Assembly (NCBI GenBank): GCA_001771535.1
Contig: MEUB01000027.1
Span: 20,601 to 84,600, forward strand
Direction: 5' to 3'
Length of the DNA stretch: 64,000 nucleotides
Source: a candidate division WOR-1 bacterium RIFOXYB2_FULL_37_13
Lineage (GTDB): Bacteria; Margulisbacteria; WOR-1; XYC2-FULL-46-14; XYC2-FULL-37-10
The number at the start of each line of letters is the position of its first letter. The stretch's first letter is position 1. Below are positions 11,560-32,483 of the stretch, piece after piece. A program made the translations under genes and the position numbers. The notes below the pieces were generated by a model that worked only from the letters and a program-made list of their open reading frames with translations, did no database searches and was not told the origin of the DNA.

Positions 11560-11587
11560 AAAACAATATTCTCCTAAAACATTCTTT

Positions 11588-16018: not shown

Positions 16019-16939
16019 TTAGATCCCCAACTTTTTTAATATTTTATTAGATATAGAATCAGAATCTAAACCTATTTTTCTCCTGACAAAATCCTGATCC
16101 CCGACATATTTTACGAAACAATCATTCACTCCAAAACATTTAATTCTAGCCATTATGCTTAATTTTGATAATGCTTCTAAAACAGCGGAACCAAACCCTC
16201 CAACAATTGAATGTTCTTCTATTGTAAAAATACACTTTGTTTTAGAGGCTGCAAAAGATATCGCTTTATAATCTATGGGTTTAACTGATGGCATGCTTAT
16301 TAAGTTAACGCTAATTCCCTTATCTTTTAAAATTTTAGCAGTATCCATTGCTGTTTTAAGCATATTACCGGTAGAAAAAATTGAAATATCATTGCCTTTA
16401 AAAATATGAATCGATTTGCCAAAAGAAAATTTTGGTTTTTTATCATGTAAGCGAGGTTCCCCGCTTTTCCCAATTCTTATGTAAGTGGGCCCTTTTTTCT
16501 TATATGCTTCAACAATACAAATTTCAGCTTCAATAGGATCTGCCGGACAAAAAACCTTCATATTTGGTATCGCCCTCATAATGGCAATATCCTCTACTGA
16601 TTGGTGAGTCGATCCTTCTTTTGCATAAGTAAGCCCTCCTCCTAAACCTATAAGAACAACATCCAGATTCTGATAGCACAAATCTATTCGTATTTGCTCA
16701 AAACATCTCATCGAAACAAATGGGGCAAAGGTATAAAGAAAACATCTTTTGCCCGATAATGCCATGCCGGCTGAAACACCTACCATATTTGCCTCAGAAA
16801 TTCCGACATTCAAAAATTGTTTTGGCAATTCCTTTTCAAAATCTTCGAAAACTGAAAAGCCCATATCAGCAGATAAGAGCATAACATTTTTATCTTTCAG
16901 CGCTATTTTCTTAATTGAAGTTACAACTGAGTTTCTCAC
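16019..16939 (-). CDS. Transketolase, C-terminal (pyrimidine-binding + C-terminal domain) subunit of a split transketolase
   Basis: 306 aa; GISEANMVGVSAGMALSGKR...; pairs with the N-terminal subunit with a 4-bp overlap. Confidence 0.8.
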   Translation of the reverse strand: MRNSVVTSIKKIALKDKNVMLLSADMGFSVFEDFEKELPKQFLNVGISEANMVGVSAGMALSGKRCFLYTFAPFVSMRCFEQIRIDLCYQNLDVVLIGLGGGLTYAKEGSTHQSVEDIAIMRAIPNMKVFCPADPIEAEICIVEAYKKKGPTYIRIGKSGEPRLHDKKPKFSFGKSIHIFKGNDISIFSTGNMLKTAMDTAKILKDKGISVNLISMPSVKPIDYKAISFAASKTKCIFTIEEHSIVGGFGSAVLEALSKLSIMARIKCFGVNDCFVKYVGDQDFVRRKIGLDSDSISNKILKKLGI

Positions 16940-17790
16940 TTAATTTTATCTCCAAAGTTACAAAGAGCTTTTTTGAATTCATCCTCTTTTGGTGATCTGT
17001 AATGCCACATCAATGAATCTTCCATAAAAGGAATACCCTTACAATGCACAGTCTTTGCAATGATCAATAAAGGTTTTTTTGATTTTATATTTGCTAAAGA
17101 ATTATATATTTGCAATATATTATGTCCGTCTATTTCTTTTACATTCCAATTGAATGCTTCCCATTTCCGTCTTAAAGGTTCAAGGCTTAAAACATCACTT
17201 GTCCGTCCATATCCTTGGAAACCATTCTTATCTAAAATAACGGTTAAATTATTCAATTTATGATGTGTTGCAAAAAGCGCTGCCTCCCAAATAGAACCTT
17301 CATCACATTCTCCGTCTCCAATAATCGTGTAAACAGAATATTTTTTATTATCTAATTTTGCGCTCAACGCCATGCCAGCCGCAATAGATAGCCCATGGCC
17401 TAAAGATCCCGTAGATGCCTCAATTCCAGGAACACTCCCAAAAACCGGATGTCCTGCCAGTCTCCCATTATTAGAATAATAAGTATTGAGAATTTTTTTA
17501 TTGAAAAATCCTAATTTAGACAAAATAACATATAGGGCAACACAAGCATGCCCCTTGCTTAAAACAAACCTATCCCTATCAGGAGAAACAGATTTTATCT
17601 TATTAACATTTAAAATCTCATAAAACAAAACAATTAAGATATCAACCAATGAATATGCACAACCAATATGCGAACTTTTAGATTTTGTTATAAGCTCTAA
17701 TATTTTCTTCCTCACTTCCATTGAAGTAAACGTAAGTTTATTGATTTTATTTTTCATATAATTCTTTTTTATTTTTTCTAAACCATTCAA
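16936..17790 (-). CDS. Transketolase, N-terminal TPP-binding subunit
   Basis: GHPVFGSVPGIEASTGSLGHGLSIAAGMA...IIGDGECDEGSIWEA is a TPP-binding signature. Confidence 0.8.
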   Translation of the reverse strand: MNGLEKIKKNYMKNKINKLTFTSMEVRKKILELITKSKSSHIGCAYSLVDILIVLFYEILNVNKIKSVSPDRDRFVLSKGHACVALYVILSKLGFFNKKILNTYYSNNGRLAGHPVFGSVPGIEASTGSLGHGLSIAAGMALSAKLDNKKYSVYTIIGDGECDEGSIWEAALFATHHKLNNLTVILDKNGFQGYGRTSDVLSLEPLRRKWEAFNWNVKEIDGHNILQIYNSLANIKSKKPLLIIAKTVHCKGIPFMEDSLMWHYRSPKEDEFKKALCNFGDKIK

Positions 17791-18730
17791 TATAAAGTTT
17801 TAATCCTTCATTTAAATCTATCGTGGGCTCCCAACCTAAAGTTTTCTTTATTTTATCAATATTAGCCTGCCAAAAAGCAGGTTCGCTTTCTCTTGAAGCT
17901 ACCTTGCCCCACAAACATTCATTGCGTTTCCCCATAATACTGCAAATTACATTTAAAATATATTGAACGGAATACTGCCTCCCACTAGAAATATTAAAAA
18001 TTTCACCATTAAGCTTTTTAGCCCCCAGAGAGTTAATTATCTTTAAATATGCATTAACAATATCATCTATAAAACAAAAATCTCTGACAGAAGATGGGTT
18101 TGCCAAATTTGGAATTTTATCCTCTAATAAAGGTTTAATAATTGAAGGAAAAAGTCTCCCTGGATCCTCAAAGTAACCATAAGCAGAAAACAATCTTATA
18201 GTTATAATATTTCTATCTGTTTTTTTAGCTGTTTTTTGGCAAAATAATGTAGTTGCTGCTTTTGAAAGACCATAATCATTAACAGGTTCTAGATAATCTG
18301 TCTCACGCATAGGCTTATTTTTAATTCCATATTCCGAAGAAGACCCTGTATTTATAAATAGTTTTCCATCTGTTTTCAAAAAAGCTTCTAAAAGATTAAT
18401 TGTGCCAAACAGATTAACTTGAAACATTCGTTGTAAATCTTGTTGATAATGATAGCCTCCATATACAGCAAGATGAATTATTATGTCAGGATTAATATCA
18501 CTTAAAACACTCGAAATTTTTTCTTTATCACTTAAATCAGCTTCATAAAACTTTATTTCATCAAATATTCCCCTCAATCTCCACAAATCAGAATCATTTT
18601 TTTTAATTGCATAAACTTTTGCTCCAAGATTTACCAATACACGAGCAATATTTGCGCCAACAAAGCCAGTCACTCCCGTTATTAATATCTTTTCTTTTCC
18701 AATAAAATTATTTTTTTCTGCCTCTTTCAT
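17747..18730 (-). CDS. NAD-dependent epimerase/dehydratase (extended SDR)
   Basis: ILITGVTGFVGANIARVL Rossmann motif; 327 aa. Confidence 0.8.
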   Translation of the reverse strand: MKEAEKNNFIGKEKILITGVTGFVGANIARVLVNLGAKVYAIKKNDSDLWRLRGIFDEIKFYEADLSDKEKISSVLSDINPDIIIHLAVYGGYHYQQDLQRMFQVNLFGTINLLEAFLKTDGKLFINTGSSSEYGIKNKPMRETDYLEPVNDYGLSKAATTLFCQKTAKKTDRNIITIRLFSAYGYFEDPGRLFPSIIKPLLEDKIPNLANPSSVRDFCFIDDIVNAYLKIINSLGAKKLNGEIFNISSGRQYSVQYILNVICSIMGKRNECLWGKVASRESEPAFWQANIDKIKKTLGWEPTIDLNEGLKLYIEWFRKNKKELYEK

Positions 18731-18748
18731 ATAATAATTATTCGAATA

Positions 18749-20086
18749 TTATTTATTAGCATTAGTTTTCATAAACTCATTTACCATTTTAACAATATAT
18801 TCCAACTTCTCTTTTGTCATCCCCGGATAAACCCCAACCCAAAAAGTATTATTCATAATTAAATCCGTATTTGTAAGTTTACCTACAACCCTATATCCCT
18901 TTTTAACCTTTCTCATTTCATCAAATGCCGGATGGCGAAGCATGTTGCCGGCAAAAAGCATTCGCGTTTGTATTTTACTATCCTCGAGATAATTGACGAT
19001 TTCTTCACGAGAAAATCCTGCATCAGGTTTTACAGTAATTAAAAACCCAAACCAACTGGGGTCTGAATCTTTCAGAGCTTTAGAAAATATAAGTTTATCG
19101 GAATATTTGCTTAATGCATCAAGTAAATATCTGTAATTTTTCTTTCTCGCCTCAATAAAGCCTAGAAGTTTATCTAATTGCGCACAGCCAATCGCAGCCT
19201 GCATATCGGTTACCTTTAAATTGTATCCAAAATGAGAATAGATATATTTATGGTCATAGCCATAAGGCAACTCTCCCAACTGCCATTTAAATCTTTTCTT
19301 GCAAGTATCATCCTTTCCACTCGGACACCAGCAATCACGACCCCAATCTCTAAAAGATTCAATAATACGCTTTAACTGAAGATTATTAGTTAAAAGAGCT
19401 CCGCCCTCTCCCATTGTTATGTGGTGAGGCGGATAAAAGCTGCAAGTGGCAATATCACCAAAAGTTCCCGTATATTTGCCTTTATATGTTGAGCCAAGAG
19501 AATCACAATTGTCTTCAATCAGCCATAAATTATGTTTCTTGCAATAGTTCTTAACTTTATCAATATCAAAAGGATTCCCTAAAGTATGAGCAATCATTAC
19601 AGCTTTTGTTTTTTTAGATAAAGCCTTTTCTAGCTTATCACAATCGATATTATAAGAAGGCAAAGTTACGTCAACAAAGACAGGAATAGCTCCAAATTGG
19701 ATAATAGGAGCAATTGTTGTTGGAAACCCTGCGGCAACTGTTATGACCTCATCTCCTCGCTTAATTTTTTTATTGCCAAGCTTAGGAGATGTTAAGGCCA
19801 TAAAAGCCAGAAGATTAGCAGAAGATCCAGAATTTGTTAAACTGCAATGCTTAACGCCAATGAAATCTGCCAATCTTTTTTCAAATTCCGCGGCATAACG
19901 GCCGGAAGTTAGCCAAAATTCAAGAGAGGAATCAACAAGATTGACAAGCTCTTTTTCATCATAAACGCGCCCGCCATAATTAACACGGGTTTCGCCTGGG
20001 ATAAAATCGGATTTTGATTGTGAAGCTTTATAATAATCTTTAACTTTGTTTAAAATTTCTTGTTTGAGTTTATTTTTTTTGTTCAT
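18749..20086 (-). CDS. ddhC: CDP-6-deoxy-D-xylo-4-hexulose-3-dehydrase (E1; DdhC/RfbH), PMP-dependent, with [2Fe-2S]-binding Cys motif
   Basis: Extensive collinear similarity to RfbH: FWLTSGRYAAEFEKRLADFIGVKHCSLTNSGSSANLLA, GDEVITVAAGFPTT, HNLWLIEDNCDSLGSTY, SFYPPHHITMGEGGA, ESFRDWGRDCWCPSGKDDTCKKRF, GYDHKYIYSHFGYNLKVTDMQAA. Confidence 0.85.
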   Translation of the reverse strand: MNKKNKLKQEILNKVKDYYKASQSKSDFIPGETRVNYGGRVYDEKELVNLVDSSLEFWLTSGRYAAEFEKRLADFIGVKHCSLTNSGSSANLLAFMALTSPKLGNKKIKRGDEVITVAAGFPTTIAPIIQFGAIPVFVDVTLPSYNIDCDKLEKALSKKTKAVMIAHTLGNPFDIDKVKNYCKKHNLWLIEDNCDSLGSTYKGKYTGTFGDIATCSFYPPHHITMGEGGALLTNNLQLKRIIESFRDWGRDCWCPSGKDDTCKKRFKWQLGELPYGYDHKYIYSHFGYNLKVTDMQAAIGCAQLDKLLGFIEARKKNYRYLLDALSKYSDKLIFSKALKDSDPSWFGFLITVKPDAGFSREEIVNYLEDSKIQTRMLFAGNMLRHPAFDEMRKVKKGYRVVGKLTNTDLIMNNTFWVGVYPGMTKEKLEYIVKMVNEFMKTNANK

Positions 20087-20152
20087 AATTATCTCCCAAG
20101 TTGTCCTGATTTACCAGGCTAATATTTTGTTTTTATCCTTTTTCTGAATAAT

Positions 20153-21250
20153 TCAAGGCTTATAAAGTTGCCGTTGATCCGGAGTTATAAAATCTTCTTT
20201 TGTAAATACTTCTGAATATGGCACCGGTATTGGTTTGCCATATATTCTTTTTGCTATATATTTATCAATAAAGTTTCTATCTTCAGCAATCCAACATGTA
20301 TCACAATATTGTCCAAACTGTTTAATATTTAAGCCCCGGTCAATAATATCTTTTAAGGGTTCCTCAAAAAAGTTTCCAAGAGAAGTATGAATGTATGGGC
20401 ATGGCATTACATCTCCGTATTTTGTAATTGAAACCATTCTTTTGACAGCAATACAGCCCAACTCAACACCGTAAGAGGGAGTTAAATGTGTAAACACATT
20501 ATGTTTTTTCTCCAATTCTCTCATGTAATCCATATCCGCTCTATCAACCAGACTGCTAAAATTCCCCTCCCAAGCCCCAACTGGCTTTGCATATGATACA
20601 AAAACCCCAACCCCCTTATCATTAAAAAACTTTAAAAATTCAATAAATTCTTGCGATCTGACTCTCTGCTTTGTAACTACAGTTTGTATAATAATCTTTA
20701 ACCCGGCATTCAAGGCCGCATCAACCGCCCTTAACGCCTTTTCATGAGATTTTGCTTTTCGCCTGAACTGATCATGTTCATCAGCTGAAAGACTGTCAAT
20801 ACTAAGTTGGATTTTATCAACTCCTATACTTTTTAAATGTTCTGCTCTCTTTTCATCTAACAACCAACCATTCGTATCAGAAGTTATGTAAAATTTTTGT
20901 GGATCAATAGCATTCACCAACTCATCAAAATCAGGAAAAACCAAAGGTTCTCCACCTGTAATAACAAGGTGTGCAAGCCCCATTTCATCTGCCTGCCGCG
21001 AAAGCTCCTTAACATCATTAATGGTAAAAACCCTGCCATCTTTTCTACCCTGGAACCTTTTTATGCAACAATGTTCACAGACAAAATTACATGTATAATC
21101 ATACTGAAATTGAATTATTGCGATACTTTCCTTGTTTTTAATTTTCTCATCATATTTCAGGATTTTTTCATACACCTGTGGTTTTTCTTTTTTTAGCAAA
21201 AACCTGCCTGCCTCTTCTTGAGAATTCAATTGCCCTTTTTGATTCGACAT
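20153..21250 (-). CDS. Radical SAM enzyme with C-terminal SPASM/twitch-like Cys-rich domain
   Basis: CNFVCEHC (CxxxCxxC) at about residue 55; C-terminal GCIAVKRMVSITKYGDVMPCPY and CDTC motifs. Confidence 0.75.
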   Translation of the reverse strand: MSNQKGQLNSQEEAGRFLLKKEKPQVYEKILKYDEKIKNKESIAIIQFQYDYTCNFVCEHCCIKRFQGRKDGRVFTINDVKELSRQADEMGLAHLVITGGEPLVFPDFDELVNAIDPQKFYITSDTNGWLLDEKRAEHLKSIGVDKIQLSIDSLSADEHDQFRRKAKSHEKALRAVDAALNAGLKIIIQTVVTKQRVRSQEFIEFLKFFNDKGVGVFVSYAKPVGAWEGNFSSLVDRADMDYMRELEKKHNVFTHLTPSYGVELGCIAVKRMVSITKYGDVMPCPYIHTSLGNFFEEPLKDIIDRGLNIKQFGQYCDTCWIAEDRNFIDKYIAKRIYGKPIPVPYSEVFTKEDFITPDQRQLYKP

Positions 21251-21297
21251 AATATTTTCCTCCTAATAATAATTTTATTTTAATCTATTCTTCAACG

Positions 21298-22437
21298 TTA
21301 AACAATCTCTAACCCAAAATCTCTCAATATAGAAACATTAATATTTTTATCAAATTTCTGCCTTACAATTCTTGCCACCTCATCGGAATAACTAGCTGCC
21401 ATAATAATTATTGCATCAACAGGATCAATATTGAGCATGACAGGAGCAACAATAGGGATATGCGTAGCTGAAGTGTATTTCCCCTGTTTAAATGGGGCAG
21501 AATCAACGACATATCTAATTTTATTTGATAAATCTGCCAAAGAAATAATTGCCAAAGCTTGATGGCTAGCCCCCCAAACAGCCACGCTCTTCTGCTTAAA
21601 TTGGCTGATATATCTGTCCATTTCATCTTTAATTTTAGTTTGATGCTGATAAAAAGAAGAAAGATCCATTCTTCTTCCTTTTTTTACAGTGGCAGAAATA
21701 ATAAAATCATGCCAAATCTCACTGCAATCAATAATGTCAAAACCATTCAAATGCAATGTTGTCGTTAATGTTTTTTTTGTAAAATAAAAAATATGATCAG
21801 GAATAAACTCAGAAAAAAGTTTATTGCGTAAAATCATATCAAAATTAGGCACTTCAACTATTCCAATTGCATTAGGTGCCAAATTATTGTAAATTCCTTT
21901 TAATGCGGAATTTGGATCAGGAAAATGCTCAAAAAAGTTTAAAATAAAAAAAGCAGCAAACGGCGCTTGTTTTAATGTATAAGAACCATTGTCAATATAA
22001 CCCTGTTCTACCTTCAGCCCTTGGTTGATGCATTGCGCTACGGATTCGCTCAAATGTTCCAAACCATAAGCCTCTGCTCCACATTGTTGCATAATAGAAA
22101 GATATTCTCCCTTGCCACACCCAATTTCAATTATTTTTTGACCCTTAAGTGAATATTTTTTAAAAAAATCGCTGAATTGTTTTATTCTGAATTTTTCCAT
22201 GTCTTCAGAAAAAGCAGCAGCACGTATAACATCTTTATAATAAGCAACTGGCTCACTGTTTAGCTGTACTAACCTGCATCCCATGCATTCACAAATTTCC
22301 AAATCAATACCTTTTTCAGAGGAAAGTGCTGCTAAATCCGGTAAAAATTGAGCCGATTTAGGCATATTTTTATAATGCAATATAGGTTCTGCAAAAAAAT
22401 CATTCCCGCAGACTCTACAGCATTTGTTTTTTTTCAT
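21298..22437 (-). CDS. SAM-dependent methyltransferase with N-terminal Zn-ribbon, TylC3-like NDP-hexose C-methyltransferase architecture
   Basis: Probable start MKKNKCCRVCGNDF at 22437 (the ORF-track start at 22533 overlaps the upstream gene); central class I MT fold IIEIGCGKGEYL; roughly 100 aa C-terminal domain. Confidence 0.55.
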   Translation of the reverse strand: MKKNKCCRVCGNDFFAEPILHYKNMPKSAQFLPDLAALSSEKGIDLEICECMGCRLVQLNSEPVAYYKDVIRAAAFSEDMEKFRIKQFSDFFKKYSLKGQKIIEIGCGKGEYLSIMQQCGAEAYGLEHLSESVAQCINQGLKVEQGYIDNGSYTLKQAPFAAFFILNFFEHFPDPNSALKGIYNNLAPNAIGIVEVPNFDMILRNKLFSEFIPDHIFYFTKKTLTTTLHLNGFDIIDCSEIWHDFIISATVKKGRRMDLSSFYQHQTKIKDEMDRYISQFKQKSVAVWGASHQALAIISLADLSNKIRYVVDSAPFKQGKYTSATHIPIVAPVMLNIDPVDAIIIMAASYSDEVARIVRQKFDKNINVSILRDFGLEIV

Positions 22438-22438
22438 A

Positions 22439-22948
22439 TTAAATAAATTCCCTATACATTTCATTGTGAGCAGAAATAATGTTGCAAGGACAATTGCTGT
22501 GCCATAACCACTGGTTTGCATGAGGAGCCTCACTATTATATTTCAAGCTTTCATCAAGCTTATCAATTAAACGACATTGATATAAGAACGAAATAAAATG
22601 ACCCCTGACTTGCCTATCTTTTATAAGACACTCTTTTGTTGCCAAAGGAACAGGATTATAATCTACTAAAGCCCTAAGCTCATTTTTGGCTACTGCTTTT
22701 ATTCTATCAGCCAGAGTTTCCTTATATCGGATTATACCGCCAGGCAAATGCCATCCGGCAGAAGCAAATCCGTCATCACGCCAGGTTAAAAGTGTTCTAT
22801 TCTGCTCGTCTTTTATCAACAAATCTACATTAACAAGAGGTGTGATTTTACTTATAAAAAGAAATATTTCTTCAGGCAACCCTTTTGATGGGTTTCCAAT
22901 AAAAGATGACAAGAGTTCTATTGCCTGCGTAATTTCCATTGATTTCAT
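22439..22948 (-). CDS. NUDIX hydrolase (GDP-mannose mannosyl hydrolase / WcaH-like)
   Basis: WHLPGGIIRYKETLADRIKAVAKNELRA resembles a Nudix box; 169 aa. Confidence 0.5.
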   Translation of the reverse strand: MKSMEITQAIELLSSFIGNPSKGLPEEIFLFISKITPLVNVDLLIKDEQNRTLLTWRDDGFASAGWHLPGGIIRYKETLADRIKAVAKNELRALVDYNPVPLATKECLIKDRQVRGHFISFLYQCRLIDKLDESLKYNSEAPHANQWLWHSNCPCNIISAHNEMYREFI

Positions 22949-23817
22949 ATTAGTTCACTTTTTTCAATAACATGCTGATTTGCGCTATACCATTGATATA
23001 AAGAATTTATCGATTCGTCGATAGGACTGAATTTAAAATCTTTCAATTCAGCCATAAGCCGCGAATTATCTCCACTATATTCTCTAGTAGTTTCGGATTT
23101 AATTATTATCTTTAGTTTTTTCCCGGATATCCCGACAACTTTTTCAGCCAGAGTTTTAAAATCAAGAGCCTGCCCTGAACAAACGTTATAAGCCTGTTCA
23201 CGCATCTTATTTTCAATAAACCATTTAACAATTCTCGCCAAATCATCTATATATAAAAAATCATAAACAACATTCTGATTAATAATAATTGGAAGATCCA
23301 TAATTGCACAGCAACAGGCTTTGGAAATAAAACGATACCGCCAATCTTCATATTTGCCAAATACTGAAAATACTCTAAGATTGTATATGTTACTGTTTAA
23401 CTGCGCGTATTTGTTCATTAAATATTTTGAAAATCCATATTGGTCGGAAGGAACATATTTATCAAAATACTCTTCTTTCATTCTAGGAATCCATTTTTCA
23501 CGCCCAAACTCCGCCCCCGAACCAAAATAAATCATTTTGCCAAAAAAGTCTTTGCAACGCGCTAGGTTAAAAAACATTCTAAGATTGTTTTCCAAAACCT
23601 TGGCTGGATCTTTGGTTGAATATTTTGGCGCAGGGTCATACGTGGATGAATGGAGAACAATATCAAATTGGTTTTTCTTAATATATTCAAAAACATTTAA
23701 ATAATCCAAAAGGTCAAGCTCATTACTGCTGCAAGAGATAATTGTATAATCATCCTTTAATTGCTCAAATAGATTTCTTGCAATAAACCCATTACCGCCG
23801 GTTATCAATATTTTCAC
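22945..23817 (-). CDS. NAD-dependent epimerase/dehydratase/reductase (SDR)
   Basis: MKILITGGNGFIARNLFEQL Rossmann motif. Confidence 0.75.
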   Translation of the reverse strand: MKILITGGNGFIARNLFEQLKDDYTIISCSSNELDLLDYLNVFEYIKKNQFDIVLHSSTYDPAPKYSTKDPAKVLENNLRMFFNLARCKDFFGKMIYFGSGAEFGREKWIPRMKEEYFDKYVPSDQYGFSKYLMNKYAQLNSNIYNLRVFSVFGKYEDWRYRFISKACCCAIMDLPIIINQNVVYDFLYIDDLARIVKWFIENKMREQAYNVCSGQALDFKTLAEKVVGISGKKLKIIIKSETTREYSGDNSRLMAELKDFKFSPIDESINSLYQWYSANQHVIEKSELI

Positions 23818-23838
23818 AATATCATTTCCTTTTGATAT

Positions 23839-24900
23839 TCATCCTTTTAAATATTCACCCGCTAAGTGCATATCACACTCTTTTGTACACTTAATCCCTT
23901 TTGCCAAATCATAGTGATTTTTTCTGAATTCATTATATTTTTCTCCGTTCCAGATATCATATAAACTATTTTCTTTCGCATTGCCTAAAATTATTTCATT
24001 ATTATAATCTTCCATACACATAACAACATCAGCATTGGATTTTATAGTCATTGACATCCATGGGTGCTTGCAAATTTCAGACCAATGGACAGAATTTGTG
24101 CCATGAAAATCCTTTCGATACCATTGTTGATCCTCACTCTTCAAATAAACATAAACATCTAAACCACAAAAAGCATCTTTAAGTTTTTGATATTCTTCTT
24201 TCTGCCAAGAATTATTTAAATCGAGCATTGTAATAATAATAGTTGTTTTATAGCCTTTTTGCTTTTTTATATTAATTAATTGCAAAATTTTATTATAACT
24301 ATCTGTAAAATTTGAGGCTTCACCCCTAATTTCTTTATGCTTTTCATCATCAACACTCTCGATTGAATATTTTATATAACTTAAGCCATTTTCAAACATC
24401 TTAATAGTGTTTTCAATATTGATGTTGGCAGGATTACAACTAAAATAGGAATAAAACCCCTTTTCAGTAAGCAACTTTACATATTCTCCCATATTCTTAT
24501 CTAATAAAGGATCTCCATATCCATGAAGTTGGATAACTTTCGGTATTATGTACAAAAAGAAATTGTTTTCGCTTTGTTCATCTTTCTCGATATTGTAGTT
24601 TTCTTTTACAAATCTCTCCCAATCTGACCATTCTTCTTTGGACCATGGACGCAATTGATTCAATATATTTATAAACACTTCCCTATTGATAGTTTCAATT
24701 TTTCTCGTCATTCTGGTTGTTCGAGGGCACATTTTGCATTTCATATTGCAAGCATTCGTTGTTTCAATGTTATAAACAACAGGATCCTTACTTCGGAATT
24801 GCTCAAATTGATCAATGATGTAATTTTTATCGAATTTTTCCCCATTCAACATTTCCTTGGAAAATTTATAAGCTTTCATAAAAAAATTAATATCAAACAT
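23839..24900 (-). CDS. Radical SAM enzyme (second copy) with C-terminal Cys-rich SPASM-like region
   Basis: CNMKCKMC (CxxxCxxC); C-terminal ICKHPW...VVMCMEDY...KCTKECD. Confidence 0.7.
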   Translation of the reverse strand: MFDINFFMKAYKFSKEMLNGEKFDKNYIIDQFEQFRSKDPVVYNIETTNACNMKCKMCPRTTRMTRKIETINREVFINILNQLRPWSKEEWSDWERFVKENYNIEKDEQSENNFFLYIIPKVIQLHGYGDPLLDKNMGEYVKLLTEKGFYSYFSCNPANINIENTIKMFENGLSYIKYSIESVDDEKHKEIRGEASNFTDSYNKILQLINIKKQKGYKTTIIITMLDLNNSWQKEEYQKLKDAFCGLDVYVYLKSEDQQWYRKDFHGTNSVHWSEICKHPWMSMTIKSNADVVMCMEDYNNEIILGNAKENSLYDIWNGEKYNEFRKNHYDLAKGIKCTKECDMHLAGEYLKG

Positions 24901-24936: not shown

Positions 24937-25914
24937 TTAGCACGATTTGTCTACCTTAAATGAAAGCGTCTGTAATGCAATTTCAAGCGCATTTATCCCA
25001 TCATCAAGCGTACAAATCGGCTCGGTTTCACGGCGAATCACAGATAAGAAATGGCGCATTTCATCAATAAACAATGAATTCCTTTCGAAATATTTTGGCG
25101 CTTCAATAAATTCCCAAGCAGAATGATTCGGTCTATAAATTGATAACTGGCCATCTGCATTATTCCAACGGATTGTGCCATTTGTTCCAATAACTTCCAA
25201 GTGGTGAGTTGTTGGCCTTTGTATATAATCAAGATGCACAGATCCAAATGCTCCATTAGGAAATTTCAAGTATACATCCGCAACATCTTCAACATTGATA
25301 CCTAGATCTCCTACTGTATCTGTATGCGCCCACATGAATTCAGGTTTTCCAAATAACCAGCTTAAATAATCAAATGGATGGCAAAGGGTTAAAACAACTC
25401 CACCGCCCAAGTCTGGACGAGCTGCATAACTGTTCCGAAAATCTTCCCATGGATGCCAGTCAGGCAAATATTCTCCCCAATGAACATTAATAGAAACTAT
25501 TCTACCAATTTCTCCTTGGGAAATCATATTAGAAGCAATCTTAAGTGTAGGATGAAATCGATACTGAAAGCCAACTAAAAATTGTCCTCCACCATGCTTC
25601 AAGGCTGCTTTTAATTTATCTATCCCTGCTAATGAATCAGAAATAGGCTTTTCGATTAAAATATGGCAACCAGCTTCTGCAGCCGGAATTGCAATATCAA
25701 AATGTAATGAAGTCGGATTTGATATTATTACAGCATCTGGTTCATGCTTTAAAGCCGAATAAATATTAGTTTCAATTGGAAATTCTTTGAATTCATCATC
25801 AATTGGAGAGGCAACCTTATTACGGCATAAAACAATATCTTTTTCTCCAAGAGAAATTAAATTCTTCAAATGCCTGCGCCCAATAGATCCAAGCCCAACA
25901 ACAACAAATTTCAT
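24937..25914 (-). CDS. Gfo/Idh/MocA family NAD(P)-dependent oxidoreductase
   Basis: MKFVVVGLGSIGRRHLKNL N-terminal Rossmann motif; EKPIS motif. Confidence 0.8.
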   Translation of the reverse strand: MKFVVVGLGSIGRRHLKNLISLGEKDIVLCRNKVASPIDDEFKEFPIETNIYSALKHEPDAVIISNPTSLHFDIAIPAAEAGCHILIEKPISDSLAGIDKLKAALKHGGGQFLVGFQYRFHPTLKIASNMISQGEIGRIVSINVHWGEYLPDWHPWEDFRNSYAARPDLGGGVVLTLCHPFDYLSWLFGKPEFMWAHTDTVGDLGINVEDVADVYLKFPNGAFGSVHLDYIQRPTTHHLEVIGTNGTIRWNNADGQLSIYRPNHSAWEFIEAPKYFERNSLFIDEMRHFLSVIRRETEPICTLDDGINALEIALQTLSFKVDKSC

Positions 25915-25941: not shown

Positions 25942-27747
25942 CTATTCTTCAAGCGGAGGAATAATCATATTTTCAAGAAATTCCTTTCTATCCAAAAAAG
26001 GCCATAAATCTTCTAATGGTTTTGAAACCATTGTTCCATCCTGTTTTTGAATAGTACTCATGCTGGGAGCCCTTGGTTCATCTGGAGGAGTAAGAATTTC
26101 GCAAACTACGGTTCCCGCCATATTCAAAACTTCCCGAAGTTTGTCAGCCAGCTTTTCTTGGCTGGTTATTTTTTTGATTTTAAGTCCATATGCTTGCGCA
26201 ACTTTACAAATATCCGGAAGTTCAAGCCCGCTGGTAGAATCAGCCCCTGTCAACCTATTAAAATATCTCATTTGTGAAGTGCGTATAGATGAATATCCCT
26301 GATTATTTAATACAAATATTTTTATTGGCAAGTTAAGTCTGGCTAAAGTTTCAAACTCTTGAATATTAAATTGAATGCCACCATCACCATCTACACAAAT
26401 AGTCCGTTTTTTATCACTTGCAAGACATCCTCCAATACTGGCCGGTAACCCATTCCCCATCGAACCTAATGCTGTTGTATTCAAAACTCTTTGACCCTTT
26501 TTTGCTTTAAAAGCAAGTAAAAATATCTCAATACCAGCACCAGAACTGCAGGGGATCACAATATCATCGCTATTTAGCTCATCTGAAAGAACCTCAGTAA
26601 AAACATATGTACTGACAAGTTTCTCTTCTCTATATTCTAGCAATACAACCGGATATTTCTTCTTCCATTCTTTACATCTAATAAGCCAATTTGAACGGTT
26701 CTTTGGCAGAATGCTATTTAGCTGTTTTATCATTTCTTGAATAAATATTTTAACATCAGAACAAATTGGAACATCTATTTTAGTCTGCATTTTATTAATT
26801 TCTGCCGGATCTATGTCTATCATGATTTTTTTGGCTGCTCGCGCAAATTTTTCATGGGAATACCCCGTTACAACGGTATCCAACCTGGCGCCAATGCTAA
26901 TTAAACAATCTGAATTTTGAAGGGCGAAGTTTGCGCCGCGTGGAGCTACAGGGCCTGGCCGGCCAACCAATAAATCATATGAATCTGATAAAATATCAAG
27001 GGCAGGCCATGTTAACAATACTGGTATTTTTAATTGCTCAATCAAAAAAAGTGCATCCTTTATTGCCCCTGATAAGCGCGTTCCATTCCCTAACAATAGT
27101 ATAGGCCTTTCAGACTTATTTAATAATTCAATTGTTTTTGAAACTAGATCAGATATATTATTTCCCTGCGATTGGTTGATAATATTTTTTTCATCAAAGC
27201 CTTCTAGTTGATCAATATCAATTATTGAAGCTTGAACATCTAAAGGGATATCAATCCATACAGGCCCTGGCCTGCCTGATTTTGTCAGATAAACCGCTTT
27301 TTCTAAATGAAAGCGGATGCTACTAGGATCCATAATAGTAACAGAATATTTGGTAATAGATTTTACAATCGGAACAATATTAACTTCTTGTACGCCGTTT
27401 TGCCTTACACCCAAATTGCCAATAAGATCAGACCTTTTAACCTGTCCTGAAATAAACATACACGGGGTAGAATCCAACCATGCCCCTGCTACTCCGGTAA
27501 TAGCATTGGTTCCCCCAGGACCAGTTGTTACTAATGCTACGCCCATGTTATTTTTTGCAATTCTTGCATAAGTTTCTGCTGCCATTGCGCTAGCCTGTTC
27601 ATGTTGATTGCAAACAAATTCAATATTTTTATTGTGGCCAATAGAATCATTCAAGTGCATAGCACCCCCACCCGGAACCATAAACACATGCTTAACTCCC
27701 TGGTCAACTAAAAATTTAACAACATAATCAGATAATTTGATTTTCAT
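25942..27747 (-). CDS. TPP-dependent enzyme of the acetolactate-synthase large-subunit family (YerE-like branched-sugar C-C ligase candidate)
   Basis: 601 aa; N-terminal pyrimidine-binding domain with VFMVPGGGAMHLND; C-terminal TPP-binding GSMGNGLPASIGG...DGDGGIQFNIQE. Confidence 0.8.
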   Translation of the reverse strand: MKIKLSDYVVKFLVDQGVKHVFMVPGGGAMHLNDSIGHNKNIEFVCNQHEQASAMAAETYARIAKNNMGVALVTTGPGGTNAITGVAGAWLDSTPCMFISGQVKRSDLIGNLGVRQNGVQEVNIVPIVKSITKYSVTIMDPSSIRFHLEKAVYLTKSGRPGPVWIDIPLDVQASIIDIDQLEGFDEKNIINQSQGNNISDLVSKTIELLNKSERPILLLGNGTRLSGAIKDALFLIEQLKIPVLLTWPALDILSDSYDLLVGRPGPVAPRGANFALQNSDCLISIGARLDTVVTGYSHEKFARAAKKIMIDIDPAEINKMQTKIDVPICSDVKIFIQEMIKQLNSILPKNRSNWLIRCKEWKKKYPVVLLEYREEKLVSTYVFTEVLSDELNSDDIVIPCSSGAGIEIFLLAFKAKKGQRVLNTTALGSMGNGLPASIGGCLASDKKRTICVDGDGGIQFNIQEFETLARLNLPIKIFVLNNQGYSSIRTSQMRYFNRLTGADSTSGLELPDICKVAQAYGLKIKKITSQEKLADKLREVLNMAGTVVCEILTPPDEPRAPSMSTIQKQDGTMVSKPLEDLWPFLDRKEFLENMIIPPLEE

Positions 27748-28304
27748 TAAACACCTATAGTTATAGTTTCTTTTGCTTTCATTTTTTGTTCCAATAGCAT
27801 ATCTAAGAATTCACGAACAGCCCCATCTCCACCCCTATGTCGAGTTATAAAGTCAACACTTTTTAAAACTGAGGGATGCGCATTAGGAGGGGCAACTGAC
27901 AAGCCAACAATTTTCATTGCAGGCAAATCATTGACGTCATCACCAATAAAGCATATTTCCGATAAATCAAAGTTATTCCTTTTGGCAAATTCAATAATCG
28001 ATTTTGCCTTATCTTTACAGCCTTTATATATTTCTTCAATCTTAAGTTTTTGTGCATATCTCTCCACAATTGCCATGCCTGAGACACTGCTTTCACCCGA
28101 CATTAGAGCAATTTTTATGCCTGCTTTTTGGGCAAAAGGAATCCCTGTTATATCTGCAAAACAAAAACGTTTTAGTTCAACATTATTTGAGTCCCACCAA
28201 AATGTTCCATCTGTCAAAACACCATCAACATCCATAACAACCGCTTTTATTTGATCAATTTTTATATTTTCAAGCATTTTATATCCCCCAAAGCTATCAG
28301 ACAT
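27747..28304 (-). CDS. HAD-IIIA phosphatase, KdsC family (3-deoxy-ulosonate-phosphate phosphatase-like)
   Basis: VVMDVDGVLTDG (HAD motif I) and FIGDDVNDLPAM (motif IV); 185 aa. Confidence 0.75.
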   Translation of the reverse strand: MSDSFGGYKMLENIKIDQIKAVVMDVDGVLTDGTFWWDSNNVELKRFCFADITGIPFAQKAGIKIALMSGESSVSGMAIVERYAQKLKIEEIYKGCKDKAKSIIEFAKRNNFDLSEICFIGDDVNDLPAMKIVGLSVAPPNAHPSVLKSVDFITRHRGGDGAVREFLDMLLEQKMKAKETITIGV

Positions 28305-29166
28305 TTCTAAGTCTTTTTATAATGGCTTCTTCCTTTGGTACAATCCTTTTTATGCCATCTCCCATAGACTTTTCAACCAATCGAATATCTCTCATTAAAC
28401 GATTTAATCCGTTTGGTTCCAAAGATGCCGCATGGTCAGATCCCCACATGGCTCTATCAAGAGTAATATGGCGCTCTATAACACAAGCTCCCATAACAGA
28501 AGCCGCCACAGATGTAGCCAGCCCTGTTTCATGCCCTGAATACCCAACAGGAACTTGATATCTATCTTTTAAAAAAGGTATTACCCTAAGATTCAAGTCT
28601 TCATAGCTTGCAGGATAAGCACTGCAACAATGGAGCAAGATTAAATCATTCTTCTGCAATATATCGACAGCATGATCAAGTTGTTCTAATGAAGACATGC
28701 CAGTTGATAGGATTATAGATCTTCCTTGTTTTCTTACATGTTTCAACAAAGCATCATCGGTTAATTTGGCAGCAGGAATTTTGTAACATGGGATATTGTA
28801 TTTCTCAAGAAAATCAACTGAATCCATATCCCAGGCAGATGCAAACCATGTTATCCCTATCTCTTTGCAAAATCTCTCAATTTCATCATATTCATTCTTT
28901 TCAAATTCAACCCTTTTGCGATATTCAAAATATGTCATATTGCCCCATGGGGTTTCACGAACAATATCTCGCTGACTAACTGGAACACATAATTCTGGAT
29001 TGCGTTTCTGGAATTTTACAGCATTACATCCTGATGCAGCCGCAACAGTGATTAATTTTTTTGCAATATTCACATCCCCGTTATGATTTATGCCAATTTC
29101 TGAAATAAAATAAGCAGGCTGTCCATCTCCAACTTTTGTATTTCTAATATTTACCGTATTATCCAT
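28297..29166 (-). CDS. NeuB-family PEP-dependent sugar synthase (N-acetylneuraminate / ulosonic acid synthase-like), TIM-barrel only; no SAF/antifreeze C-terminal domain
   Basis: YFISEIGINHNGDVNIAKKLITVAAASGCNAVKFQKR matches the NeuB N-terminal signature; 289 aa versus about 340 aa for canonical NeuB/PseI. Confidence 0.7.
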   Translation of the reverse strand: MDNTVNIRNTKVGDGQPAYFISEIGINHNGDVNIAKKLITVAAASGCNAVKFQKRNPELCVPVSQRDIVRETPWGNMTYFEYRKRVEFEKNEYDEIERFCKEIGITWFASAWDMDSVDFLEKYNIPCYKIPAAKLTDDALLKHVRKQGRSIILSTGMSSLEQLDHAVDILQKNDLILLHCCSAYPASYEDLNLRVIPFLKDRYQVPVGYSGHETGLATSVAASVMGACVIERHITLDRAMWGSDHAASLEPNGLNRLMRDIRLVEKSMGDGIKRIVPKEEAIIKRLRNV

Positions 29167-29219: not shown

Positions 29220-30308
29220 TCATGTTTTATTTACCTTTATGCCTTTAGAATATAATTCTATTTGATTATAACAAACTCTCCTCAGGTCTTTTCTTTCTTT
29301 ATAAGCTCTAGTCCACTCAACAATCTTATCAAGTGCTTTTTCCAAATCCCATTTAGGATTCCAATCTAATCTTTTTTTAACCTTAGTACAATCTAATTTT
29401 AAATAATGCGCCTCATGAGGATGCATCCCTTTATCAATTTCATAAGAAGCAGCTTCTCCCCATTTAAAGCATAATTTCTTAACAATCCATAAAACGGATC
29501 TTGAATCTTTCTCATCAGAACCAAAGTTCCAAGCTTGTGAATATTTAGCTCCATTTTCATATAATTTTTCAGCCAAAAGAAGATATCCGAAAAGTGGTTC
29601 CAAAACATGTTGCCATGGTCGTATTGCTTTTGGGTTTCTAATTGTAATTTTTTTATTGCTTAAAATTGCTCTCACAAAATCAGGGATTAGACGATCTTGC
29701 GCCCAATCCCCACCACCGACAACATTCCCCGCCCTAGCAGTCGCAATTCCAACTCCATGAGCAGAATATTCTTTTGGGTTAAAAAATGAATTTCTATAAG
29801 CGGCTGTTACAATTTCAGAGCATGCTTTGCTGCTGGAATAAGGATCATATCCCCCTAAAGGTTCGTCTTCGCAATAGCCTGCAGCTCTTTCTTTGTTTTC
29901 ATAACATTTATCTGTAGTTACATTTATAAAAGCTCGAACAGTTTTACAGATTCTTACGGCTTCCAATAAATTTACTGTTCCCATTACATTTGTAGAATAA
30001 GTATCTACTGGATTTTTATAAGAATCACGAACCAAAGGTTGCGCCGCCATATGAATCACAATATCAGGTTTTGCCTTAAACAAAGCTTTTTGAAGATTTT
30101 CTAAATCCCTTATATCTCCGATAACAGAAGTTACAAGTTCTTCTATCTTGCATAATTTAAATAAACTGGGATTTGTAGGTGGATTTAATGCATAACCTGT
30201 AACTTTTGCTCCAAGCAAGTTAAGCCATAAAGAAAGCCATGCGCCTTTAAAGCCTGTATGGCCCGTTAAGAAGACTCTTTTATCTTTCCAGAAATTTTTA
30301 TTAATCAT
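29220..30308 (-). CDS. ddhB: CDP-glucose 4,6-dehydratase
   Basis: NFWKDKRVFLTGHTGFKGAWLSLWL is the RfbG/DdhB signature; probable start at the internal Met (30308), overlapping the upstream gene by 4 bp. Confidence 0.85.
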   Translation of the reverse strand: MINKNFWKDKRVFLTGHTGFKGAWLSLWLNLLGAKVTGYALNPPTNPSLFKLCKIEELVTSVIGDIRDLENLQKALFKAKPDIVIHMAAQPLVRDSYKNPVDTYSTNVMGTVNLLEAVRICKTVRAFINVTTDKCYENKERAAGYCEDEPLGGYDPYSSSKACSEIVTAAYRNSFFNPKEYSAHGVGIATARAGNVVGGGDWAQDRLIPDFVRAILSNKKITIRNPKAIRPWQHVLEPLFGYLLLAEKLYENGAKYSQAWNFGSDEKDSRSVLWIVKKLCFKWGEAASYEIDKGMHPHEAHYLKLDCTKVKKRLDWNPKWDLEKALDKIVEWTRAYKERKDLRRVCYNQIELYSKGIKVNKT

Positions 30309-31697: not shown

Positions 31698-32483
31698 TTA
31701 TTCCCAAACCTTCCACGGCGCATTCCCTTTATTCCACATTTCATTTAGAAGGACAGAGTCGCGATAGGTATCCATACATTGCCAAAAGTCAGAATGGGGA
31801 TACATCATAAGCTCCTCTTTCTTAACCAGGTTTTCCAGCGGTTTTTTTTCAAGAATACAATCATCATCAGTTGAAAGAAAATCAAATAATTCCCTTTTAA
31901 AAACAAAAAAGCCGCCATTTATATGTCCTTCAGAAACCGTCGGCTTTTCATTAAAGCTTAAAACTTTATTGTCTTTTGACGATATTTCACCAAATCTTGA
32001 TGGGGGTCTGACCGCTGTAATCGTAGCTGTTTTCCCATGTTCATGATGAAACTCTAAAAGTTTACTAATATCAACATTCGCTAAGCCATCTCCATAGGTA
32101 AGAAAAAATTCTTTGTCACTCCCAATAAAATCCTTAATTTTCGCAACACGGCTGCCTGTTTGAGAAAGTTGCCCAGTATTTACAAAAGTGATATTCCAAT
32201 CTTCTAAGGTGGAGCTGTTATGATGAATTACTCTTTCCTCTTTTGACCTTAAATTCAAAGTAAAGTCATTCATTAACTCTTCAAATTTTAAAAAATAGTC
32301 TTTTATCATATCCCCTTTATAACCCAAGCACAAAATAAAATTTTTATATCCATAGTGAGAATATGTCTTCATAATGTGCCATAAAATCGGCATTTCTCCA
32401 ATTGGCACTAAAGGTTTTGGCCGATATTCTGTTTCCTCGCGTAAACGAGTTCCCTGTCCGCCGCAAAGAATAACTACTTTCAT
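31698..32483 (-). CDS. ddhA: Glucose-1-phosphate cytidylyltransferase
   Basis: MKVVILCGGQGTRLREETEYRPKPLVPIGEMPILWHIMKTYSHYGYKNFILCLGYKGDMIKDYFL closely matches RfbF. Confidence 0.85.
   Translation of the reverse strand: MKVVILCGGQGTRLREETEYRPKPLVPIGEMPILWHIMKTYSHYGYKNFILCLGYKGDMIKDYFLKFEELMNDFTLNLRSKEERVIHHNSSTLEDWNITFVNTGQLSQTGSRVAKIKDFIGSDKEFFLTYGDGLANVDISKLLEFHHEHGKTATITAVRPPSRFGEISSKDNKVLSFNEKPTVSEGHINGGFFVFKRELFDFLSTDDDCILEKKPLENLVKKEELMMYPHSDFWQCMDTYRDSVLLNEMWNKGNAPWKVWE

Follow-up and report, generated by a model that had tools for sequence, protein, structure and literature searches.

Organization of the locus

The 64-kb stretch of DNA analyzed here (the window; contig MEUB01000027.1 of candidate division WOR-1 bacterium RIFOXYB2_FULL_37_13) encodes the CDP-sugar 3-dehydrase E1 (RfbH/DdhC) and two radical S-adenosylmethionine (SAM) enzymes, here called rSAM-1 and rSAM-2. 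Pfam and NCBIfam scans, which were run on every open reading frame (ORF) of at least 100 amino acids, identified the window (G+C content of approximately 32%) as a single very large surface-polysaccharide locus with abundant glycosyltransferases (GT2, GT4, and GT9), export genes (Wzm/Wzt, Wzx, Wza, and Wzz), and genes for GDP-mannose dehydratase and UDP-glucose dehydrogenase. All of the substantial ORFs, including the genes under study, are on the minus strand. Beyond the ends of the window are guaA, guaB, and mreBCD on one side and further glycan genes on the other. The sugar-nucleotide genes are tightly packed between positions 32483 and 16019 (Table 1) and probably constitute one operon-like array serving the surrounding O-antigen or capsule locus of this WOR-1 (Saganbacteria-type) anaerobe.

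The initial annotation of this region gave correct coordinates for E1 and both radical SAM genes. E1 and rSAM-1 are separated by 66 bp rather than 67 bp. Nor is rSAM-1 downstream of ddhC, as had been described; with both genes on the minus strand, it directly precedes E1 in the direction of transcription. An organizing feature of the array that the initial annotation did not include is a putative YerE-like thiamine diphosphate (ThDP) carboligase accompanied by a keto-acid module with a NeuB-type synthase and a phosphatase. This combination places the locus in the known scheme of acyl-branched sugar biosynthesis.

Table 1. Genes of the sugar-nucleotide array, listed in the direction of transcription
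Feature	Coordinates	Strand	Evidence
Glucose-1-phosphate cytidylyltransferase DdhA/RfbF, makes CDP-glucose	31698..32483	-	TIGR02623 335.8 bits, cutoff 300
CDP-glucose 4,6-dehydratase DdhB/RfbG	29220..30344	-	TIGR02622 504 bits, cutoff 278
Short NeuB-like phosphoenolpyruvate (PEP)-condensing synthase, 289 aa, without SAF	28297..29166	-	Pfam NeuB 274 bits
KdsC/YrbI-type HAD phosphatase (ulosonate-phosphate phosphatase)	27747..28304	-	TIGR01670 138.4 bits, cutoff 106.95
Putative YerE-like ThDP carboligase, 601 aa	25942..27747	-	Three TPP_enzyme domains; JanthE 8RPH 395 bits
GFO/IDH/MocA NAD(P) oxidoreductase, putative partner of rSAM-2 in keto-acid module	24937..25914	-	Pfam domains
rSAM-2, radical SAM, 4-Cys twitch domain, remote BtrN kin	23839..24900	-	Radical_SAM and SPASM, BtrN alignment
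SDR290, short-chain dehydrogenase/reductase (SDR) family epimerase/reductase, 290 aa, candidate YerF-like ketoreductase	22945..23817	-	Pfam Epimerase 98 bits
Nudix-fold protein, degenerate Nudix box	22439..22948	-	Weak Pfam NUDIX match
TylC3-type sugar C-methyltransferase (CMT)	21298..22533	-	Methyltransf_13, Methyltransf_23, Methyltransf_14
rSAM-1, radical SAM, 3-Cys auxiliary site, MoaA/viperin/BlsE-like	20153..21250	-	Radical_SAM and SPASM
E1, CDP-6-deoxy-L-threo-D-glycero-4-hexulose 3-dehydrase (RfbH/DdhC), pyridoxamine phosphate (PMP) and [2Fe-2S]	18749..20086	-	NF011936 (RfbH) 763 bits, cutoff 423
SDR327, SDR of 327 aa, likely NDP-sugar reductase/epimerase of E1/transketolase sub-cassette	17747..18730	-	Pfam Epimerase 153 bits
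Split transketolase: N part 16936-17790, C part 16019-16939	16019..17790	-	Transketolase_N, Transket_pyr, Transketolase_C

E1 and the absence of E3

The rfbH/ddhC gene encodes a genuine E1, as had been annotated, and its His and Cys motifs are intact. The protein aligned with the Yersinia E1 structures 3BCX/3BB8 over residues 5-441 with 571 bits. In an alignment of the window E1, three cassette homologues, and the Yersinia enzyme, the His-His pair H221/H222, which replaces the Lys of aminotransferases, was invariant, and the active-site segment FYPPHHITMGEGG aligned with the E1 sequence FYPAHHITMGEGG. Cys194, Cys252, Cys254, and Cys262 were also invariant, with the spacing C-x57-C-x1-C-x7-C; exactly this spacing was reportedly described by Agnihotri et al. 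(2004). The four-Cys motif of E1 is confirmed in a review of nucleotide-sugar dehydratases.

The reductase E3 (DdhD/AscD), which normally serves E1, had been noted as missing from the window, and our searches agree with this. None of the window ORFs of at least 100 amino acids contains a Fer2, FAD_binding_6, or NAD_binding_1 domain, and the Salmonella E3 used as a tblastn query gave no match in the window. The E3 domains were also not found within 10 kb past either end, so that no ddhD is located just outside the window. Furthermore, no ORF with the ferredoxin motif CxxCxxCxxxCP is present in the window or beside E1. We surveyed the 80 loci most similar to the window E1 among one-genome-per-species GTDB contigs, each taken with 10-kb flanks (loci are denoted by L numbers). 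Two E3 probes were used in tblastn and phmmer searches: an AscD sequence, the Fer2/FAD/NAD architecture of which was checked with Pfam, and the Salmonella E3 gene in L088, annotated 1.9 kb from rfbH, which was also the positive control. The two probes recovered the control with scores of 676 and 346 bits; neither the window nor any of the remaining loci among the 80 gave an E3 match, even at E = 10. Among all 99 sequences with an E1 orthologue (2.1 Mb in total), E3 is near E1 in only one, namely the Salmonella control. The rfbF-rfbG-rfbH clusters on Azospirillum and Methylovirgula plasmids have no annotated E3, either. When all neighbours in the 80 loci were clustered, no other recurrent redox partner of E1 was found; the recurrent neighbours are sugar genes only, such as GT2, LicD, RmlC, GmhA/B, and GtrA. 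A regular-expression search of the loci for motifs of plant-type ferredoxin and ferredoxin-NADP reductase (FNR) gave no E3 candidate; it was too crude and was superseded by the tblastn and phmmer searches.

The initial annotation implied that the lack of E3 and the presence of the radical SAM enzymes are connected. In the 80 reference-genome loci, rSAM-1 is present in two and rSAM-2 in none. Since E3 is absent in 98 of the 99 sequences and the radical SAM genes are near only two of the 80 E1 genes, such a connection is not supported. Having no E3 nearby is thus the normal situation in this E1 clade, and it shows no statistical relation to the radical SAM genes. The textbook pair of E1 and E3 appears to be the exception among E1 loci; in nearly every locus sampled, from anaerobes, two alphaproteobacterial plasmids, and archaea, E3 is not encoded nearby. 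This matters for the annotation or reconstitution of 3,6-dideoxyhexose pathways. A precedent is SpnQ: according to the nucleotide-sugar dehydratase review, this E1 homologue shares the Fe-S motif and works with general ferredoxin or flavodoxin reductase pairs in place of E3. By analogy, the most economical model would be that the window E1 receives its electrons from general ferredoxin or flavodoxin, with no dedicated E3. Such a model would suit an anaerobe, because its radical SAM enzymes need the same low-potential electrons.

The putative carboligase and keto-acid module

JanthE is the best PDB match of the ThDP enzyme, compared with at most 274 bits for acetolactate synthases, and the score against the acetolactate synthase equivalog model (390.7 bits) is below the cutoff of 538; the comparison was with JanthE and acetolactate synthase structures. 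According to its published description, JanthE is YerE-like and couples 2-keto acids with ketones. Steitz et al. (2022) reported that ErwE, MMAR_2332, and MyGE accept functionalized C4-C8 2-keto acids in vitro with surrogate acceptors, and proposed CDP-4-keto-3,6-dideoxyglucose as the physiological acceptor of YerE-like enzymes. In their unifying scheme, a cluster-encoded aldolase makes the 2-keto acid, leading to erwiniose, caryophyllose, and gastriose. A later review of ThDP enzymes describes more than 200 such clusters, and transketolase-type branching has been predicted there from gene clusters. A YerE-type ThDP gene is present in 26 of the 80 E1 loci. On the basis of its sequence similarity, we propose that the ThDP enzyme of the window is a YerE-like carboligase, which would add its donor to C4 of CDP-4-keto-3,6-dideoxyglucose.

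In the window, the short NeuB and the KdsC-type phosphatase occupy the place of the aldolase. The short NeuB consists of the TIM-barrel NeuB domain only, with no C-terminal SAF domain; its best PDB match is also a short NeuB (6NCS), and its scores are below the NeuB/PseI equivalog cutoffs (263 vs 400 bits for TIGR03569, and 217 vs 340 bits for TIGR03586). We propose that it makes a phosphorylated 3-deoxy-2-ulosonic acid. The phosphatase scored 134 bits with the KDN-9-P phosphatase model, and its PDB matches are KdsC enzymes and 3E8M, which we take to be the Bacteroides KDN-9-P phosphatase. In cassettes with rSAM-1 only, a 505-aa NeuB-cupin fusion and an NT5C-like phosphatase are encoded directly upstream of the ThDP gene. 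The presence of two independent sets of a PEP-condensing synthase and a phosphatase beside the carboligase points to a 3-deoxy-2-ulosonic acid as the donor, and NeuB and the phosphatase of the window probably supply this 2-keto acid. The GFO oxidoreductase has myo-inositol 2-dehydrogenase as its best PDB match and is fused to a HAD phosphatase in L006. The whole array is syntenic in the Elusimicrobia contig L005. SDR290 co-occurs with the ThDP enzyme, CMT, and rSAM-1.

The split transketolase suggests a candidate second ThDP system that would branch deoxy-keto sugars from the E1 product. The order of rfbH, an SDR gene (in some cases), transketolase N, and transketolase C is shared by the window (16019-20086), L089 (9962-13105), and L137 (7009-11123), the latter two being plasmids of Desulfobaculum bizertense and Methylovirgula sp. 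HY1. In Methylovirgula, an oxidoreductase equivalent to SDR327 is located beside rfbH and the transketolase. The transketolase N gene is found in five of the 80 E1 loci.

Auxiliary Cys residues and database relatives of the radical SAM enzymes

The initial annotation described SPASM/twitch-like Cys motifs in both radical SAM enzymes. The auxiliary Cys residues and a Pfam SPASM match are indeed present, but the full seven-Cys SPASM pattern, CX9-15GX4C...CX2CX5CX3C...C, is not. Since only three auxiliary Cys residues of rSAM-1 and four of rSAM-2 are invariant, their domains are of the twitch type or a partial SPASM, with a single cluster. Both enzymes are far below the cutoffs of the housekeeping families: rSAM-1 scored 98.5 bits against MoaA (cutoff 284) and 71 bits against PqqE (cutoff 381), and rSAM-2 scored 18.9 and 32.7 bits, respectively. 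In the databases that were searched, both families carry only generic or automatic labels. Their location in sugar pathways, which had been pointed out for the window, extends across many phyla.

rSAM-2 and its probable link to ulosonic acids

The rSAM-2 protein has the cluster motif CNMKCKMC, scores of 51 bits for Radical_SAM (cutoff 29.5) and 54 bits for SPASM (cutoff 21.5), and invariant Cys residues at 51/55/58 and 277/295/338/342 as well as at 155. Homologues with 65-82% identity are found in Margulisbacteria, Elusimicrobia, Deltaproteobacteria, and archaea. A short NeuB adjoins rSAM-2 in each of the six non-redundant contexts. Three contexts are of the window type (the window, L005, and L006), with NeuB, phosphatase, ThDP enzyme, GFO, and rSAM-2. 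The other three, L007 (archaeal), L134, and L135 (Elusimicrobia), have a HAD phosphatase, a DegT aminotransferase, rSAM-2, NeuB, and a CMP-sugar synthetase, with neither E1 nor ThDP enzyme; this cassette seems to encode a pathway to an amino-ulosonic acid that has not been described before. It is located at approximately 8300-12750 in each of the three, often together with B12-radical SAM and MBOAT genes; L134 is an unassigned metagenomic contig. Since NeuB is beside rSAM-2 in all six contexts, an ulosonic acid is likely to be the shared intermediate, which would be CMP-activated or, in the window, given to the carboligase.

Among the sugar enzymes named in the initial annotation, BtrN fits rSAM-2. 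The two proteins align in three collinear segments (E = 1.3e-8, 37 bits), namely the cluster motif, HGYGDPLL vs HFYGEPLL, and the twitch segment C-[MF]-ED-[YF]-N...GN...DIW...K[YF]..FRK, in which C295 matches a twitch Cys of BtrN; the C-x17-C spacing of rSAM-2 is presumably also that of BtrN. The AlphaFold model of rSAM-2 has a predicted local distance difference test (pLDDT) value of 84, and its top Foldseek matches are DesII, SkfB, BtrN, and anSME, with template-modelling (TM) scores of approximately 0.5. The comparison with DesII, which had also been suggested, did not hold at the sequence level: DesII (8HZY) is not in the phmmer PDB lists of either radical SAM enzyme at E <= 0.01, and is a fold neighbour of rSAM-2 only, with 11% identity. 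PDB searches with the two enzymes returned no AprD4 entry, and no direct sequence comparison with AprD4 was made. BtrN oxidizes a carbinol, after which the DegT-family aminotransferase BtrS aminates the product. By analogy, there is close to an even chance that rSAM-2 is a radical carbinol dehydrogenase acting on a hydroxyl group of the ulosonic acid or its precursor, with GFO re-reducing the ketone in the window. The net outcome would be epimerization, or deoxygenation if a dehydration intervenes as in AprD4/AprD3. The aminotransferase that accompanies rSAM-2 was considered as a possible indicator of the reaction and was rejected as not diagnostic; it matches many sugar aminotransferases, and BtrS and KdnA are among them but not at the top.

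rSAM-1 and its partners

The cluster motif of rSAM-1 is CNFVCEHC, and the protein scored 91 bits for Radical_SAM and 25.6 bits for SPASM, against the same cutoffs of 29.5 and 21.5. Its only invariant Cys residues are 54/58/61 and the C-terminal 266/284/319, an arrangement as in MoaA, where the open iron binds the substrate. One protein, from candidate division WOR-1 bacterium RIFOXYC2_FULL_37_10, is 100% identical to rSAM-1, and homologues with 71-80% identity are found in Desulfobacteraceae, Phycisphaerae, Clostridiales, and Omnitrophota. These orthologues form a single 50% cluster inside a wider family of 217 clusters (E <= 1e-30). The best sequence and fold matches are MoaA, SuiB, SkfB, BlsE, viperin, and AbmM, all with scores far below the family cutoffs; several of these enzymes act on cytidine or guanosine nucleotides.

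Among 19 non-redundant rSAM-1 loci with at least 8 kb of flanking sequence, the ThDP gene is present in 14, the Nudix-fold gene in 13, E1 in 12, CMT in 10, and E3 in none. Both of the rSAM-1-positive loci among the 80 E1 loci also carry the ThDP gene. In L112 (9989-12259), which comes from another metagenome, a single 756-aa ORF joins an rSAM-1 orthologue (71% identity) to a methyltransferase with a Zn-finger, a class I domain, and a C-terminal domain. This is the architecture of the window CMT, to which the fused methyltransferase is distantly related. B12-radical SAM genes adjoin rSAM-1 in other loci. The Nudix-fold protein has the conserved box PGGixRxKE-x4-R-x3-vA-x2-E-x-G in the alignment, without REUXEE, and no activity is assignable to it. 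The neighbours, the fusion in L112, and the nucleotide-handling fold relatives suggest that rSAM-1 acts on a CDP-linked sugar together with the C-methyltransferase. Our tentative preference is for the oxidation of a carbinol to the ketone needed by an enolate-type C-methyltransferase, with SDR290 restoring the alcohol. Radical dehydration, epimerization, or cyclization may be alternatives.

Proposed pathway

We propose, with a probability of roughly 0.6, that the array builds a CDP-activated 3,6-dideoxyhexose with a 4-C-acyl branch, of the YerE/ErwE type. DdhA and DdhB would form CDP-4-keto-6-deoxyglucose, from which E1 would remove the 3-OH via a PMP-glucoseen, with two electrons passing through its own [2Fe-2S] cluster from general ferredoxin or flavodoxin, as in SpnQ. 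In parallel, the short NeuB would condense PEP with a sugar phosphate, and the KdsC-type phosphatase would release the 3-deoxy-2-ulosonic acid. The BtrN-like rSAM-2, together with GFO, would re-tailor one carbinol of this acid. The YerE-like ThDP enzyme would decarboxylate the acid and add the remainder to the C4 ketone of the CDP-sugar. Finally, rSAM-1, CMT, the Nudix-fold protein, and SDR290 would tailor the CDP-linked product; in the likeliest version of this step, rSAM-1 would convert a carbinol to a ketone, CMT would methylate the neighbouring carbon, and the SDR would reduce the ketone back.

The type of pathway, with E1 and a YerE-like carboligase, is already known, and so are E1 homologues without E3. 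Compared with Steitz et al. (2022), the ThDP review, and our literature searches, the new elements are the donor supply by NeuB and phosphatase, the two radical SAM families with their partners, and the fusion of rSAM-1 with a methyltransferase. No radical SAM component is described in Steitz et al. (2022) or in the ThDP review, and the word "radical" is absent from the text of the latter. Literature searches for radical SAM enzymes with E1 or CDP-sugars, nonulosonic acids, or branched O-antigen sugars gave nothing relevant. A NeuB-type synthase with a phosphatase would be an added source of the keto-acid donor in the scheme of acyl-branched sugars, and the locus gives a pathway context, partners, and candidate substrates to two radical SAM families that extend, with 65-82% identity, from bacterial phyla into archaea. 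The initial annotation proposed new sugar-tailoring chemistry. The proposal stands insofar as both radical SAM enzymes are non-housekeeping enzymes of sugar pathways, but their framing as replacements of E3 does not. Both families may mark unexplored anaerobic sugar chemistry, rSAM-2 as an oxygen- and NAD-independent dehydrogenase of ulosonic acids and rSAM-1 as the catalyst of a radical step on CDP-sugars that enables C-methylation at an otherwise non-activated carbon, although we regard this as rather doubtful at present. On this reading, the product of rSAM-2 would be transaminated and CMP-activated in archaea and Elusimicrobia, and would serve here as the acyl donor of the YerE-like enzyme, giving a monosaccharide with a C7-C8 polyhydroxy branch and 14-15 carbons in total.

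Alternative explanations

One possible explanation of the missing E3 is that one or both radical SAM enzymes replace it, either by passing electrons through their auxiliary Fe-S clusters to the [2Fe-2S] cluster of E1 or by an AprD4-type radical deoxygenation. The absence of E3, the short distance between rSAM-1 and E1, the frequent presence of E1 in rSAM-1 loci, and the auxiliary clusters of both enzymes are consistent with this explanation. However, 78 of the 80 E3-less reference-genome E1 loci have neither radical SAM gene, and an E3-less E1 gene may be accompanied by rSAM-1 only (L003), by rSAM-2 only (L006), or by neither of them. Conversely, each radical SAM family also occurs with no E1 nearby; rSAM-2 follows NeuB, and rSAM-1 follows the ThDP enzyme, the methyltransferase, and the Nudix-fold protein. 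The Fe-S and His machinery of E1 is complete, and thus nothing needs replacing. Moreover, radical SAM enzymes themselves use up low-potential electrons, and we are not aware of any radical SAM protein that acts as an electron carrier. We therefore consider this replacement extremely unlikely. Another way to account for an E1 with no reductase encoded nearby would be a non-reductive reaction, either a ColD-like hydrolysis with recycling of PMP by glutamate or a 4-amino transfer like that of SpnQ, which, according to the dehydratase review, transaminates if no reductase is supplied. However, the four Fe-S Cys residues are invariant in the clade and are absent from ColD, and the same review states that E1 and ColD do not show the transaminase side activity. 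The YerE-like partner, too, needs a 4-keto-3,6-dideoxy product, and a non-reductive E1 is very unlikely in our judgment.

Several points weigh against the proposed pathway for a CDP-activated branched sugar. One is that NeuB, the phosphatase, GFO, and rSAM-2 could make a separate modified ulosonic-acid sugar, while the ThDP enzyme would add pyruvate to give a yersiniose-type C2 branch, the adjacency of the genes being due to operon packing. YerE uses pyruvate according to the ThDP literature, and in L007, L134, and L135 rSAM-2 and NeuB are indeed found with a CMP-sugar synthetase and an aminotransferase, with no ThDP enzyme. However, a CMP-ulosonate synthetase (CTP_transf_3) is present neither in any ORF of the window nor in L005 or L006, and in these three loci the ThDP gene is directly between the phosphatase/NeuB genes and GFO. 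In the rSAM-1-only cassettes, the NeuB-cupin fusion and the NT5C-type phosphatase are likewise directly upstream of the ThDP gene, so that a synthase and a phosphatase accompany the carboligase in two independent gene sets. A separate ulosonic-acid pathway is thus unlikely. As for the electron supply, a gene for E3 or for another dedicated reductase may lie in a different part of the genome, because the search covered the window and its 10-kb flanks, and the loci of the relatives span only approximately 10 kb on each side. With regard to rSAM-1, its gene is present in L120, L111, and L115 with neither E1 nor ThDP enzyme within reach, its structural model is of moderate confidence only (pLDDT 72), and the TM scores of both radical SAM models are, as mentioned for rSAM-2, approximately 0.5. 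The ThDP ligation already leaves a ketone in the side chain, and the methyltransferase may not need a ketone made by rSAM-1. The acyl-branched CDP-sugar, with E1 reduced by general carriers and an ulosonic acid as the donor, is the reading that we retain.

Other features of the locus

Two gene starts probably differ from those of the ORFs in Table 1. The TIGR02622 match of DdhB starts at residue 18, and the TTG start of the ORF overlaps a Schlafen gene; translation probably begins further downstream. With the GTG start at 22533, CMT would overlap the Nudix-fold gene by 95 nt. Its likely true start is the ATG at 22437 (MKKNK), which suits the homologues of 371-386 aa. The domain layout of CMT is a Zn-finger, a class I methyltransferase domain, and a C-terminal domain.

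Most of the sugar-nucleotide array lies between two minus-strand genes (14641-15996 and 30305-31672) with Schlafen/AlbA_2, HATPase_c_4, and winged helix-turn-helix domains; one of these separates DdhA from DdhB. The polysaccharide locus of L135 likewise has a gene of this family at its margin. We considered the pair as the ends of a mobile unit and rejected this; since the two are only 32% identical and flanking DNA repeats are absent, the array is not a recent mobile cassette. AAA_14 ATPase genes are within or border glycan loci in the window (1280-2701) and in L001 (19790-20962, together with DUF4143), with no role evident. After the cassette in L001, L003, L005, L006, and L100, there is an ArnC-like GT2 gene, often accompanied by GtrA and a PMT_2/ArnT-like transferase, which suggests that in those organisms the sugar is delivered via a polyprenyl-phosphate carrier. 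Unlike those relatives, the window cassette lies in a Wzm/Wzt ABC-transporter locus.

Comparison with known systems

DdhA, DdhB, and E1 of the window are clear orthologues of the Yersinia and Salmonella enzymes (DdhA-D, or RfbF, G, H, and I), and E1 is approximately 57-58% identical to the enterobacterial E1 with the same His and Cys motifs. These pathways differ in E3 (DdhD/RfbI), which is close to rfbH in the Salmonella control and is absent here and in 97 other E1 loci. In this respect, the window E1 resembles SpnQ of spinosyn forosamine biosynthesis, which is also a [2Fe-2S]/PMP 3-dehydrase in a cluster without E3 and is reduced by general ferredoxin/flavodoxin systems. However, the substrate of SpnQ is a TDP-2,6-dideoxy sugar and its gene belongs to a secondary-metabolite cluster of an actinomycete, whereas the window E1 is found with CDP-glucose genes in the surface-polysaccharide locus of an anaerobe. 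The closest parallel to the predicted pathway as a whole is given by YerE, ErwE, MMAR_2332, and MyGE (yersiniose, erwiniose, caryophyllose, and gastriose), in which CDP-4-keto-3,6-dideoxyglucose is the acceptor of a ThDP carboligase that has its own supply of the 2-keto acid, and a ketoreductase and sometimes a methyltransferase act afterwards. The acid is made by a pyruvate aldolase in those systems, whereas the window would use a NeuB-type synthase and a phosphatase; the window also adds two radical SAM enzymes, a Nudix-fold protein, and a C-methyltransferase to the scheme.

With BtrN/BtrS of butirosin biosynthesis, rSAM-2 shares its motifs and, in three loci, the pairing with a DegT aminotransferase. 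It differs from BtrN in being approximately 100 residues longer, with an insertion, and in its context, which is an ulosonic acid and not an aminocyclitol. KdnA (PDB 5K8B) is among the better matches of the aminotransferase that accompanies rSAM-2. KdnB is a metal-dependent alcohol dehydrogenase, and KdnB and KdnA of Shewanella oxidize a hydroxyl group of an ulosonic acid and then transaminate it to 8-amino-Kdo (Kdo8N), as may occur in the cassettes with HAD phosphatase, aminotransferase, rSAM-2, and NeuB. In these cassettes, however, the oxidant would be an oxygen-independent radical SAM enzyme, and in the window GFO replaces the aminotransferase. Finally, rSAM-1 has three auxiliary Cys residues as in MoaA, and its best sequence and fold matches include MoaA, viperin, BlsE, and AbmM. 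AprD4/AprD3 is a comparable pairing of a radical SAM enzyme with an NAD(P)H reductase. Unlike rSAM-1, none of MoaA, viperin, BlsE, AbmM, and AprD4 is known to have a conserved methyltransferase or Nudix partner.

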